Assembly (NCBI GenBank): GCA_024235795.1
Contig: JACKLR010000002.1
Location: forward strand, 887,225-951,224
Source: Burkholderiales bacterium
GTDB lineage: Bacteria; Pseudomonadota; Gammaproteobacteria; Burkholderiales; Nitrosomonadaceae
Direction of reading: 5' to 3'
DNA: 64,000 nucleotides
The notes beneath the pieces are model-generated. The model saw only the letters and a list, made by a program, of their open reading frames with translations. It was not told the origin of the DNA and did no database searches. A program made the position numbers and the translations under genes. Below, piece by piece: positions 5,742-14,646 of the stretch. Within the stretch, counting starts at the first letter, position 1, and each line of letters starts with the position of its first letter.

Positions 5742-7025
5742 ATGAAGCAAACGTTTTCCCAAAACACTGAACGCCAGCAAAGCTACCGCACACCATCTCG
5801 ATCGGAACAAGCATCTGCTGTACGTGTTTCAATCGCGGATCACCGGGCGTCGGCCACGCAGCTACGCCAATTGATGGCGGCGATAGAACATTCACCGCAG
5901 GCCATCGCGCAGCGCAACCGCAACGATCAATTTCGCAGCAGTCCGCGCATGATTGCGCAACGGCAACATATAACGGCGATTATGGGAGGTACACTGCAAA
6001 AGATTACGGGTGAGGAAGAACTGATCCAAGGCAAATGCGATATGTCACAACACGAAAAAGCACTTGCAAAGAAAACCAACAACACTGGCTTGTCGGTCAA
6101 TTTAAAACATGGCATTGAAAATCTTTCGGGATTGTCAATGGATCATGTCGAGGAACATTACAACTCATCAAAACCTGAACAACAGGCGTGGCGTGAAGCG
6201 AGTGGCTCTATCCAGTCTGACCTAATTGGTTTTCAGAAGGTGTCTGGAGAAGAGATGTTGCAGGGGAAATTTGATGCTCAGCCAGAAACAGCGCAACTTA
6301 ATGCATTGGTTCATGTGCCGGAAGCCGCTATTCATGTGGCACAACTCAAAAGCAATGTCAGCAACAATAACATGACAGTAGTGCAGATGGGTCACTACAA
6401 AGGTGGGCGCTACGTTACCGATCAAGAAATCAATTACCACGATATGTACGATAAGTTCATACATACATGGTCTTTTTCTGAAAATGCAGCAGATGGGTCG
6501 TATGTCGATCCGACCACAAAACGAAAGAAAGTAACTGCTCCGGTCTGGAAAAATTTATTTGATCAACTTGATCAACTTGTTACTCAGGCCTGTACTGGTG
6601 GCATGATGCTGACAAAAAATTTTCACCATTTCGATTCGGGTACGCCGGTAGCATTGAAGTTCGCGGAAGTGGAAAAAGCAGGTGTAAACGGCACGGGAGG
6701 ATTGTTACCTGTTGGCATGCATGGACCCGGTAATATTCCGATGGTTGACCATCCCGATGAAGTCGCAGTTACAAACTTCATCGGACGAGCGCAGAACGCC
6801 TACAACGGATGGCTGGTCAATCCAATCCTCGCTACACGGGGACCGCAAGACACAACAAGATTAAGTGTAGGGCAAATTGAAATTCTTTCGCATCGGCAGT
6901 TACCGCCAGGATGGACATTTCATATTAGTATTTCGGGTGCATGGGCTTTGCACCATGCCGGTCCGCCGAATGCACAGATAGATGGGAAAACCGGGAAACC
7001 GGCGACTTTTATCTATCATACCTAG
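5742..7025 (+). CDS. eCIS cargo-like protein with shared leader, degenerate DUF4157 and unknown C-terminal domain
   Basis: GGAGG RBS. Leader contains SPQAIAQR/SPRMIAQR. NNTGLSVNLKHGIENLSGLSMDHV..HYNS is the DUF4157 N-half, but the HEAWH motif is missing. Confidence 0.7.
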   Translation: MKQTFSQNTERQQSYRTPSRSEQASAVRVSIADHRASATQLRQLMAAIEHSPQAIAQRNRNDQFRSSPRMIAQRQHITAIMGGTLQKITGEEELIQGKCDMSQHEKALAKKTNNTGLSVNLKHGIENLSGLSMDHVEEHYNSSKPEQQAWREASGSIQSDLIGFQKVSGEEMLQGKFDAQPETAQLNALVHVPEAAIHVAQLKSNVSNNNMTVVQMGHYKGGRYVTDQEINYHDMYDKFIHTWSFSENAADGSYVDPTTKRKKVTAPVWKNLFDQLDQLVTQACTGGMMLTKNFHHFDSGTPVALKFAEVEKAGVNGTGGLLPVGMHGPGNIPMVDHPDEVAVTNFIGRAQNAYNGWLVNPILATRGPQDTTRLSVGQIEILSHRQLPPGWTFHISISGAWALHHAGPPNAQIDGKTGKPATFIYHT

Positions 7026-7046
7026 GTAATGGACCGCTACCCGAAA

Positions 7047-13501: not shown

Positions 13502-13572
13502 ATATTGTTTATTCGGTCAGTAGTTTGATACATTCATAAAAAAATGTTATCAGTGTTAATACGGAGGGCGGT
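13502..13572 (+). promoter_or_regulatory. Conserved upstream element of cargo gene (copy 2)
   Basis: Near-copy of 9601-9670, ending in a GGAGGG RBS. Confidence 0.6.
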
Positions 13573-14646
13573 ATGAAAAAGTCGTTAACGGCTGAAGCGA
13601 AACGTCAAATTGGTCATGCACGAAATGCGCGACCTGGACTTGAAGCAACCAATCCCGTCAATCAAGGGAGCTATGGTTTCGTCGATAACCGTGCAGAAAC
13701 GCAGGTGCAGCGCCGCTTGATGGCCGACATTAATGACAGCCCGAAAGTCATGGTGCAGCGTAAGGAAGCCGAATCATTACATGCCAGCCCGCGCATGGCT
13801 GCACAAAGAATATGGTACGGTTCGATAAGCAAATCTGCAGCCCAGTTACAAAGCGCACCCGAGGATGAATTACTGCAGGGGCGGTTTGAGACAGCGCAAC
13901 GGATGGAAGAAGAGGAGCCTTTGCAGGGAAAATTTGAAGCCCTTCAGCGCATGGCGGAAGAAGAACCCGTGCAGGGCAAGTTCGCAACCCTGCCGATACA
14001 GTTGCAAGAATCAACAGCTGACAAGCCAAACAATACCGGTTTGCCGGATAATCTGAAAGCAGGTATCGAAACGCTTTCCGGCATTTCCATGGACAGTGTC
14101 AAAGTCCACTACAACTCTGAAAAACCGGCGCAACTCAATGCCCTGGCTTACGCCCAGGGTACGGATATTCATGTGGCGCCCGGGCAGGAAAAACACTTGC
14201 CGCATGAAGCCTGGCACGTGGTGCAGCAGGCGCAGGGGCGTGTGCAGCCGACGATGCAAATGAAAGAAGGCGTGCCGATTAATGACGATCAAAGCCTTGA
14301 GCATGAGGCTGATGTAATGGGTGAAAAAGCATTAAATACAAGCCGGCTTGTATCACCTGTTCAGGCAAAATGCGATCAATGCCAGGAAGGCGAACAACTC
14401 GATATTCATCGCTCTGTGGTACAAGAAAAAGTCAAAATGTCATACCGGCCTATTTCAACGGTGATTCAATCGCAGGTTATACAGCGCGCGTGTTATTTTT
14501 TTAAGAATGCCGATTGTACGGGGAAAAAGGTTTACGCAACGAGCAAGCACAATTTCAAAGATTATAAGACTTACAATTGTTCTGGAGATAGAGAGAGCGA
14601 TGATTGTGTGGATAACGACGGCAAAGGACATTGTAGTTGTCCTTAA
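13573..14646 (+). CDS. DUF4157 (eCIS core) protein with 52-aa six-cysteine C-terminal peptide
   Basis: Intact DUF4157 (HEAWH), a CDQC motif, then QR followed by ACYFFKNADC...GHCSCP. Confidence 0.8.
   Translation: MKKSLTAEAKRQIGHARNARPGLEATNPVNQGSYGFVDNRAETQVQRRLMADINDSPKVMVQRKEAESLHASPRMAAQRIWYGSISKSAAQLQSAPEDELLQGRFETAQRMEEEEPLQGKFEALQRMAEEEPVQGKFATLPIQLQESTADKPNNTGLPDNLKAGIETLSGISMDSVKVHYNSEKPAQLNALAYAQGTDIHVAPGQEKHLPHEAWHVVQQAQGRVQPTMQMKEGVPINDDQSLEHEADVMGEKALNTSRLVSPVQAKCDQCQEGEQLDIHRSVVQEKVKMSYRPISTVIQSQVIQRACYFFKNADCTGKKVYATSKHNFKDYKTYNCSGDRESDDCVDNDGKGHCSCP
13673..14263 (+). repeat. ~590-bp near-identical direct repeat (copy 2)
   Basis: Matches 9777-10367. Confidence 0.92.

Follow-up and report, generated by a model that had tools for sequence, protein, structure and literature searches.

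The window, that is, the whole stretch of 64,000 nucleotides analysed here, opens with genes of a contractile injection system (CIS). Its first feature, at 1-1047 on the + strand, covers the C-terminal portion of Cis14, the CIS tape-measure protein (PF19268 CIS_TMP, 6.3e-71), whose full gene encodes 1720 aa in a sister MAG (gene table of L001/L003). The next gene (1031-2413, +) encodes a Cis15-type AAA+ ATPase of 460 aa (PF00004, 3.6e-29), presumably the cargo-loading ATPase, and an identical Cis15 protein directly follows the tape-measure protein in 6 contigs. These profile matches agree with an earlier note on this DNA, which had placed tape-measure and ATPase genes upstream of a cargo array. 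A SalCis20-like integral membrane protein of 876 aa with C-terminal TM helices follows (2410-5040, +); its match to PDB entry 9r9a_B (2e-23), which is SalCis20 (PMC13266070), covers residues 427-576 only. Between this gene and the array lies a SAM-dependent methyltransferase gene (5103-5711, +; Methyltransf_25/31/12). Structural genes were also expected further upstream, and a MAG contig that is 99.98% identical to the window indeed carries the baseplate genes Cis11 and Cis12 directly 5'. Its Cis12 matches SalCis12 (1.4e-64) and Algo12 (1.1e-61) as well as Pvc12 and Afp12, and its Cis11 matches the SalCIS baseplate-J protein (1.6e-19). The CIS is identified from its genes, namely Cis11 and Cis12 in the MAG, whose sequence as used here ends at Cis11, and the tape-measure protein, Cis15 and Cis20 in the window. 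The host is an ammonia oxidiser, as had been supposed: a hao-orf2-cycA-cycB cluster lies within the window, and the near-identical MAG is assigned to Nitrosomonas sp.

Four + strand cargo genes, P1 to P4, start at 5742, 9671, 12365 and 13573, where open reading frames had been reported. P1 (427 aa, 5742-7025) combines a leader at aa 1-100 (leader HMM, 9e-36) with a decayed DUF4157 remnant at aa ~113-205, in which HExxH is lost and one repeat unit is inserted. Its junction motif VVQM (aa 213-216, 6378-6389) is followed by an orphan C-terminal domain (6390-7025, +). P1 has no Pfam or NCBIfam match, a word-indexed search of 5.8 billion proteins returned no homologues of its tail, and the best PDB sequence match of the tail is weak (E 0.05). 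P2 (502 aa, 9671-11179) carries the leader, acidic QG[KR]F repeats, an intact DUF4157/eCIS_core domain (aa 159-224, 10145-10342; PF13699, 4e-10), the junction IVQK (aa 287-290, 10529-10540) and a HopH1/NleD-like Peptidase_M91 tail with HELIH. The tail matches profile positions 93-176 of PF14891 (1.2e-7, 32.6 bits, cutoff 25), and its match to the NCBIfam XopG/HopH model (9e-5) stays below the cutoff (22 against 150).

In P3 (351 aa, 12365-13420), the leader and the junction AVQR (aa 143-146, 12791-12802) precede an alpha+beta C-terminal domain of 205 aa, and DUF4157 is absent. AlphaFold2 (AF2) predicts this domain (aa 147-351) with pLDDT >93 and places the motif at the disorder-to-order boundary, between residues 146 and 147. 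The domain has no Pfam match, and comparisons of sequence, profile and fold with PDB and BFVD gave nothing significant. With 14 homologues that have other N-termini, and with invariant His, Arg, Glu and Ser residues, among them H183, R243, H248, H306 and E308, it is a member of an undescribed family that is confidently folded in the AF2 model. P4 (357 aa, 13573-14646) consists of leader, acidic repeats, an intact DUF4157 (aa 157-222, 14041-14238; PF13699, 4e-8), a linker holding four hhQx motifs, the junction VIQR (aa 302-305, 14476-14487), and a short tail of 52 aa with six cysteines; its AF2 model has no fold match, and no PDB sequence match was found. The signature HExxHxxQ...E is accordingly present in the DUF4157 domains of P2 and P4 and missing from P1 and P3. 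The four genes do end in unrelated C-terminal domains, as the earlier note had claimed: an orphan domain (P1), an M91-like peptidase (P2), an alpha+beta domain (P3) and a six-cysteine tail (P4). The tails of P1, P3 and P4 are presumed to be toxic. No small open reading frame that could be an immunity gene was found after the tails of P1 to P4, where the gaps to the next gene measure 21, 172, 152 and 44 nt. None of the RNA runs that were searched for the locus contains the cargo genes.

The common N-terminal leader is confirmed by alignment of the four proteins, in which M1, K2, Q12, D.R, SP..QR, SPRM.AQR and QG are invariant, and a leader-HMM scan of the window found it in P1, P2, P3 and P4 only. 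Leader and ~16-aa repeats had been described as two separate elements; both are present, but they form one periodic array, in which each unit has 16 residues and closes with hQR, at spacings of 16, 16, 31 and 16 residues. Among 440 spacings between motifs, a value of exactly 16 occurs in 30% and of 32 in 13%. The models predict helices at aa 41-54, 57-70 and 73-93 (pLDDT about 94), so that a confident helical stretch at aa 41-93 is flanked by low-pLDDT regions at aa 1-40 and 97-143. The N-termini of P1 to P4 are hydrophilic, and we therefore rejected a Sec or lipoprotein route for their secretion. The leader family comprises 1052 clusters at E<=1e-3; a genome scan with the alignment of the four window leaders found only 3 loci. 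In three further independent loci (L009, L012 and L015), leader arrays adjoin Cis15-Cis20-MTase, with the SalCis20-like gene kept 3' of the ATPase in all three and the methyltransferase in the same position in L009 and L012. In three of seven independent leader loci (L010, L014 and L016), the surrounding 10 kb contain no CIS gene. Open reading frames upstream of the L010 leader gene were considered as CIS genes and rejected, as they resemble GC-rich noise.

Each gene was further said to switch to its tail right after a short motif. VVQM, IVQK, AVQR and VIQR are found at the proposed positions and a motif precedes every tail, but it does not mark the exact end of similarity, as P2 and P4 diverge ~35-50 aa earlier. 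Their similarity ends directly after DUF4157, and the motif stands out as conserved within an otherwise unconserved linker. Among 59 independent representatives, 47 have the motif within 100 aa after DUF4157, compared with 9.2±2.8 (maximum 19) in 500 shuffles, and 12 lack it there; per 100 aa, there are 1.4 to 3.1 motifs over the 40 aa that follow DUF4157 and ~0.1 beyond them. In at least one sister protein, of 961 aa in L012, the tail switch lies inside a DUF4157 remnant and has no motif. In the P3-tail family, QR directly precedes the fold in 13/13 proteins with an N-terminal extension, and Q145 and R146 hardly vary among the four N-terminal module types on which this tail occurs. A standalone homologue of the P3 tail (P0048) starts immediately after QR, and the motif also precedes unrelated tails in L009, L010 and the Nitrospirales protein P0004. 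A profile of hydrophobicity steps around the last motif was flat, as the automatic procedure picked that motif too crudely. The junction site is statistically supported by its enrichment beyond shuffles and coincides with the disorder-to-fold boundary, and we could show that hhQ[RK] is under selection independently of leader type. VENN in CdiA and DPxGL in Rhs are short conserved pre-toxin motifs that stand directly before variable, otherwise unrelated toxin tails, and DPxGL of Rhs is a proven autoproteolysis site. Both the motif sequence and the delivery system differ from those of hhQ[RK], for which we know of no chemistry.

The order of N-terminal domain, DUF4157 and C-terminal domain in such cargo is already published, by Zhang 2012 (PMC3482391) and Geller 2021 (PMC8213781) and for AlgoCIS (PMC8894135), SalCIS and PROCIS, and the array architecture is thus much less novel than the earlier note implied. 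AlgoCIS Cgo1 and Cgo2 likewise show an N-terminal loading region, DUF4157 and a variable C-terminal domain in this order, and AlgoCIS, too, has several cargo genes with a common N-terminal region beside Cis15 and a clade Ib-type baseplate (Algo12, 1e-61). AlgoCIS cargo sits in the tube lumen (PMC8894135), and its loading needs the N-terminal domain, DUF4157 being dispensable (10.64898/2026.05.27.728243). By its published description, this AlgoCIS domain is disordered and system-specific, and no motif is reported for it, whereas the Nitrosomonas leader core has a 16-aa hQR repeat and three predicted helices and recurs in 1052 clusters. Unlike Cgo1 and Cgo2, two of the four Nitrosomonas cargo genes lack a working DUF4157; the published definition admits cargo without DUF4157 if it is adjacent to DUF4157 genes (PMC11297309). 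SalCIS of Salmonella enterica subsp. salamae provides the best PDB matches for Cis12 (1e-64) and Cis11 (2e-19) as well as the match for the Cis20 homologue (2e-23), and its effectors SalCgo1/2, one of them with DUF4157, adjoin Cis15 as well (PMC13266070). Where SalCIS has two effectors, Nitrosomonas has an array of four, interspersed with methyltransferase, lipase and GGDEF/EAL genes. SalCIS is proposed to be anchored in the inner membrane (PMC13266070), and the Nitrosomonas machine, which is likened to it by its gene content, may by analogy be membrane-anchored instead of released.

Surveys of PVC-metallopeptidase and eCIS toxins (PMC3482391, PMC8213781, PMC11297309) describe further features that recur here, namely a constant N-terminal module with hyper-variable toxin domains, recombination, a position 3' of the operon and the frequent lack of an immunity gene. 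A constant N-terminus with a variable C-terminus is stated for PVC-metallopeptidase polymorphic toxins, in whose PVC-type subset the immunity gene is often absent (PMC3482391). The position corresponds as well: P1 is the third and P4 the eighth gene after Cis15, which puts the array inside the published range of ten genes downstream of the final core gene. Tox-HopH1 is listed in these surveys among PVC-linked tails, and free-living nitrifiers (Nitrosococcus) were already noted among the carriers. In contrast to the surveys, recombination between paralogous constant modules is caught here as a population variant. Neither the periodic hQR leader nor the hhQ[RK] junction is mentioned in the accessible text of the three papers, and literature searches on the motifs as strings and on Nitrosomonas CIS returned nothing relevant. 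We thus found these two family-wide details described nowhere.

We consider it likely that the locus is the effector (cargo) array of a contractile injection system that resembles clade Ib and is nearest to SalCIS and AlgoCIS, in activated-sludge Nitrosomonas, and that its genes are built from cassettes. Each gene would start with a hydrophilic N-terminal tail, followed by three 16-residue helical units, each terminated by hQR, and by acidic EEExLQG(K/R)F..QR repeats. An optional DUF4157 domain (PVC-metallopeptidase), which P2 and P4 keep intact, P1 keeps in decayed form and P3 lacks, would come next, and then a short unconserved linker terminating in hhQ[R/K/M] and the variable effector domain. 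By analogy to AlgoCIS Cgo1/Cgo2, the leader may serve as a loading signal, which the Cis15 ATPase would help to read and which would place the protein in the tube lumen. The motif hhQ[RK] would mark the end of the delivery module and could be there for processing, for recognition or as a boundary between structural parts.

The constant 5' module, near-identical between paralogues, would moreover be what homologous recombination acts on to gain, lose and reshuffle tails, a process that appears as a 3.9-kb presence/absence variant between populations. Two direct repeats on the + strand, 9601-10368 (70 nt upstream plus the P2 5' module; core 9818-10356) and 13502-14270 (71 nt upstream plus the P4 5' module; core 13714-14252), are 93.8% identical over 770 bp (blastn) and share a perfectly identical core of 539 bp. 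Activated sludge holds two structural variants, which differ by the 3.9-kb cassette between these copies: the window has four cargo genes and the MAG two, window positions 10369-13501 are absent from the MAG, and the MAG gene is a chimera of the P2 N-terminus and the P4 C-terminus. As the forms differ exactly at an identical repeat of 539 bp, which short-read assemblers do not span, the two-gene form could be a mere assembly collapse of the repeat. We rejected this explanation as highly improbable on read depth: in both runs of sample S1, contig depth is zero in the interior (10.4-14.0 kb) and 54-125x in the flanks, interior depth equals flank depth in six other runs, and a collapse would still leave interior unitigs. 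The earlier proposal of polymorphic payloads is borne out by this cassette gain and loss between identical leader modules, by sister loci with arrays of 3-4 leader genes with differing tails, and by the hyper-diversity of the tails. Those of 91 long representatives fall into 88 BLAST clusters, a count based on automatic all-against-all BLAST starts that are confounded by repeats and DUF4157 remnants and whose use we limited to counting clusters and to a few unambiguous cases. As regards placement in the particle, proteins with DUF4157 from Streptomyces were purified together with spike, hub and tube-initiator proteins (PMC11126660; 10.1101/2025.11.06.686954), and DUF4157-bearing proteins might be adaptors on the spike/tube-initiator complex with their tails at the tip, as has been proposed for SLIV_17110 and Tme in Streptomyces. 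Such a role seems improbable here, as the closest relatives of the system are AlgoCIS and SalCIS, in which the tube lumen is filled with DUF4157 cargo, and as the leader is kept in P3, which has no DUF4157, and in P1, where the domain is decayed.

What the cassette-built cargo gains from its junction motif can be read in two ways. The DUF4157 (PVC) metallopeptidase, predicted to be a releasing autopeptidase (PMC3482391), might cleave at hhQ[RK] in cis or in trans, so that a cut at the junction frees the effector and cuts at the leader copies spaced 16 aa apart dismantle the leader after delivery. With every type of leader, the motif is conserved right where the fold begins on its N-terminal side, the standalone homologue begins after QR, and at 12 nt the motif is too short for upkeep by recombination alone, so that selection has to act on the protein. 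Genes without DUF4157, such as P3 and gene b of L009, adjoin DUF4157-only genes (e.g., L009 11256-11966), in line with the published adjacency in cis or in trans (PMC11297309). We nevertheless think cleavage unlikely: the accessible literature reports no cleavage of Cgo1/Cgo2 or SalCgo and describes their toxicity as unchanged by HExxH mutations, the motif persists while DUF4157 decays repeatedly (P1, L009c and two L012 genes), and the P4 linker is of low confidence in AF2 and lends no support to docking. The junction could instead be the last copy of the leader repeat unit, with a part in recognition or spacing within the loading signal or in N-capping the tail's first beta-strand, and thus a cassette joint that involves no proteolysis. 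We regard this as a genuine, if tentative, possibility. The junction shares its consensus with the 16-aa units of the leader, a hydrophobic-alternating strand often comes next (QR-VIKLDG, QK-KIVLDP, QR-KVGFEF), and fusions of the AlgoCIS loading sequence to BlaM and Cre are delivered in active form, the accessible text reporting no processing step (10.64898/2026.05.27.728243). The motif is kept, however, in the P3-tail homologues P0042 to P0047, which have no 16-aa repeats at all, and it is not part of the fold because the standalone homologue lacks it.

Recognition, loading and release of CIS cargo, as well as the role of DUF4157, are open questions in the current literature. For a leader family of ~1000 clusters, two elements now provide a mutable handle on these questions: the helical hQR repeat with its period of 16 residues, and the junction, four residues long, exactly where the effector fold starts. 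Both could sharpen cargo-engineering designs. If DUF4157 did cut hhQ[R/K], this would explain why the domain marks nearly all CIS although loading does not need it, and engineered injection systems would gain a portable tag to 'load, inject, release'. The locus also presents a natural case of cassette gain and loss via recombination between identical leader modules, and it adds at least one effector domain that is confidently folded in the model and has no known relative. Genes for a multi-effector injection system are thus carried by a keystone nitrifier of wastewater plants. The protease type of the P2 tail is best known from effectors against eukaryotic hosts, which may hint at an interaction with grazers.

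The cargo array itself is broken up by a reverse-strand GGDEF/EAL gene and by a gene for a class-3 lipase with a lipoprotein-type signal peptide (11403-12329, +; PF01764, 2.6e-21; MRKSQSGLFVSITVLLLLFSGC). The lipase, whose role is uncertain, has no leader and is probably not lumen cargo; homologues adjoin the arrays in L009 and L016.

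Four plus-strand genes, P1 (427 aa, 5742-7025), P2 (502 aa, 9671-11179), P3 (351 aa, 12365-13420) and P4 (357 aa, 13573-14646), were found as ORFs at the starts proposed in the earlier note, 5742, 9671, 12365 and 13573. Their position downstream of tape-measure and ATPase genes, likewise proposed, also held: the window opens with the C-terminal 348 aa of a contractile injection system (CIS) tape-measure protein (PF19268, 6e-71), followed by an AAA+ ATPase (domain match), an 876-aa SalCis20-homologous membrane protein (2410-5040; PDB 9r9a, 2e-23) and a SAM methyltransferase (5103-5711; domain match). 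Upstream structural genes were looked for in a MAG contig named Nitrosomonas sp., 99.98% identical to the window across 10.4 kb and covered upstream of the tape measure as far as the baseplate genes, and both Cis12 (SalCis12 1e-64, Algo12 1e-61, also Pvc12 and Afp12) and Cis11 are present just ahead of the tape measure; the refuting condition set in the earlier note, a lack of eCIS structural genes upstream, thus does not hold. The nearest structural relatives of this machine are SalCIS and AlgoCIS (clade Ib). The label 'extracellular' is not secure for the Nitrosomonas system, because an inner-membrane anchor formed by SalCis20 has been proposed for its relative SalCIS (PMC13266070).

A SalCis20-like protein and then a SAM methyltransferase also lie between Cis15 and cargo in two other loci, L009 (3269-6571) and L012 (972-4288); in L015 the membrane protein is present (7207-9843) and a methyltransferase was not called. 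A methyltransferase at this position does not belong to the SalCIS and AlgoCIS operons, as far as the accessible parts of their descriptions go. The tape-measure gene of the near-identical contig (4855-10017) encodes 1720 aa, of which the last ~190 aa alone match the CIS_TMP profile in the window; L015 carries a 1321-aa version. Afp and PVC tape measures are far shorter than 1720 aa, and a protein of this length might point to a long particle or to some additional function.

Each cargo gene joins a shared leader to a tail of its own. The predicted common N-terminus is borne out by alignment of P1-P4, with invariant M1, K2, Q12, D.R, SP..QR, SPRM.AQR and QG, and a leader profile matched, within the 64-kb window, these four genes and no others. 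The leader and the ~16-aa repeats described in the earlier note both exist, but as a single periodic structure and not as two elements. In P2 and P4, successive hQ[RK] motifs lie 16, 16, 31 and 16 residues apart; P1 and P3 show a similar pattern, and this periodicity is conserved across the family (n=440 spacings, 141 representatives; 30% exactly 16, 13% 32). In an AlphaFold2 model from an 84-sequence alignment, P4 residues 41-93 form three helices, one per repeat unit, at pLDDT about 94, and the model is of low confidence over residues 1-40 and in the acidic repeats, EEExLQG(K/R)F..QR (97-143). An intact DUF4157/eCIS_core domain with HEAWHVVQQ follows the leader in P2 and P4, and P1 retains a remnant that has lost HExxH and contains an inserted repeat unit; domain search and alignment found no DUF4157 in P3. 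Sister loci likewise hold decayed or internally deleted copies.

The four junction motifs ahead of the tails were recovered at their reported places (VVQM 6381-6389, IVQK ~10529-10540, AVQR 12791-12802, VIQR ~14476-14487). The switch to an unrelated tail was said to come right after them, but P2/P4 similarity ends directly behind DUF4157, 35-50 residues earlier, which makes the motif a conserved island within a linker that is otherwise unconserved. That the hhQ[RK] junction (two hydrophobic residues, Gln, Arg/Lys) is real follows from three lines: enrichment, the homologues of the P3 tail and the boundary of the P3 model. Among 59 representatives with DUF4157 and at least 120 residues beyond it, [VILMATPS][VILMAT]Q[RKM] has a density of 1.4, 3.1 and 0.85 per 100 aa in the three successive 20-residue bins that follow the domain, and of about 0.1 per 100 aa more than 100 residues past it; 47 have it within 100 residues, versus 9.2±2.8 (maximum 19) in 500 shuffles, and 22 have a stricter form, versus 2.4±1.5. 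It is not universal: it is missing after DUF4157 in 12 of the 59, and in a 961-aa protein of L012 the tail switch falls inside a DUF4157 remnant. The 14 P3-tail homologues have varied N-termini (the same repeat leader, DUF4157 modules or GC-rich repeat-free leaders), and hhQR immediately precedes the conserved start in 13/13 with an N-terminal extension (for example AVQR/VIELDG, IVQR/KILLDG, PIQR/VIKVGG); the lone standalone homologue begins exactly past it. AlphaFold2 models P3 as disordered up to residue 144 and at a pLDDT above 93 from about 147; AVQR occupies 143-146. Elsewhere the motif precedes unrelated tails in L009 (STVQK/VPWD, AIVQR/KSVK), L010 (VVQRK/VGFEFE) and the protein P0004 (PVIQK/FDAG).

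We tentatively favour a non-proteolytic boundary or recognition element as the role of hhQ[RK], and rank below it a cleavage site for DUF4157, which we consider unlikely: such processing would be attractive in giving DUF4157 a task that fits its being dispensable for loading, but it is not reported for Cgo or SalCgo in the searched portions of the PROCIS preprint, PMC8894135 and PMC13266070, the last two of which, in those portions, describe HExxH mutants without phenotype. By analogy with AlgoCIS and PVC work, the leader would serve Cis15-assisted loading into the tube lumen.

The P2 tail is a HopH1/NleD/XopG-like zinc protease by profile match (Peptidase_M91, 32.6 bits, cutoff 25; HELIH present). 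The P3 tail (12803-13420, plus strand) is a 205-aa alpha+beta domain with a confident AlphaFold2 fold, for which searches of Pfam, PDB and BFVD returned zero relatives; with its homologues (P0035-P0048) it shares about 20 invariant residues, including H183, R243, R245-Q-Q-H248, H306, E308 and H321; the invariant positions comprise W, S, H, N, R, TLYF, GR.RQQH.GP, H.E and H.S.G. The domain may represent a new effector enzyme. Protein and PDB sequence searches detected no relatives of the P1 tail, and the P4 tail comprises 52 residues with six cysteines and a low-confidence model. Window ORFs yielded no candidate immunity genes behind P1-P4; such absence is common among PVC-type toxins according to the part of PMC3482391 consulted.

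P2 and P4 have in common a 770-bp 5' module, including 70 nt upstream, whose core is 100% identical over 539 bp (9818-10356 = 13714-14252) between sharply diverged flanks. The near-identical contig lacks window positions 10369-13501 and has a single gene joining the P2 N-terminus to the remainder of P4. Contig depth in two runs of one sludge sample is 54-125x on the flanks and zero in the interior, and in six runs from other samples the interior equals the flanks, so that the long and short forms are real haplotypes. A single cassette block separates them, which is the outcome that recombination inside the constant module would produce.

The leader profile retrieved 1052 clusters (E<=1e-3) among 1.84 billion representatives, and the tails of 91 long-tailed representatives fall into 88 BLAST clusters, 86 of them singletons, in agreement with the proposed polymorphic payloads. 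L009 (groundwater Nitrosomonadaceae MAG) and L012 (metagenome contig) each have an array of three or four leader genes behind Cis15, Cis20 and methyltransferase, and L015 has just one leader gene, located after Cis12, TMP, AAA and Cis20. No CIS genes lie within 10 kb of the leader gene in L010 (Pseudomonadota MAG), L014 or L016. The leader-plus-DUF4157 gene of L014 (10001-10522), on a Nitrospirales contig, comes immediately after the nuo (complex I) operon and represents an orphan cargo gene from a lineage of the nitrite-oxidiser type. In Nitrosomonas marina (L016, 8802-10797), a class-3 lipase and a decayed, truncated and frameshifted P3-like gene adjoin the window's downstream glycosyltransferase genes and 356-aa membrane protein, and no CIS genes were found upstream of the pair; this resembles the remains of a CIS island that was lost, or else the insertion site.

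The shared N-terminal region with optional DUF4157 and variable toxin has been published (PMC3482391, PMC8213781, PMC11297309, PMC8894135, PMC13266070, PROCIS preprint), and free-living nitrifiers have been noted (PMC3482391); the Nitrosomonas array therefore adds to a known type. In the portions of the literature searched, we found no account of the 16-residue hQR helical repeat, the hhQ[RK] junction, the P3-tail family, the captured cassette variant or any CIS in Nitrosomonas.

That the host is an ammonia oxidiser, as claimed, is supported by the Nitrosomonas sp. name of the near-identical contig and by a complete hao-orf2-cycA-cycB cluster (33077-37379; hydroxylamine oxidoreductase, orf2, cytochrome c554 and NapC/NirT-type cM552). 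The hao-orf2-c554-cM552 set is a hallmark of ammonia-oxidising bacteria. The cluster is 18 kb away from the cargo array, with which it shares a purine-rich skew in the composition profile. The window sequence is found again in metagenomes of activated sludge and wastewater.

Two genes interrupt the array. A PAS-GAF-GGDEF-EAL gene on the minus strand (7047-9389; domain matches) keeps its place between P1 and P2 in the near-identical contig and may link the injection system to c-di-GMP control; a second PAS-GGDEF-EAL gene lies at 52287-54800 (plus strand, domain content). The other, a class-3 lipase gene (11403-12329, plus strand; domain match), encodes a lipoprotein signal peptide with the lipobox LFSGC and lacks the leader. 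Leaderless Lipase_3 genes lie in or beside cargo arrays of two species (here and L009, 12063-12878) and may act in release or immunity, or be unrelated neighbours. Finally, three 2-oxoacid:ferredoxin oxidoreductase genes (POR gamma/delta, alpha, beta) and, behind them, an AMP-forming acyl-CoA ligase gene occupy 40998-44138 of the window in this ammonia oxidiser.
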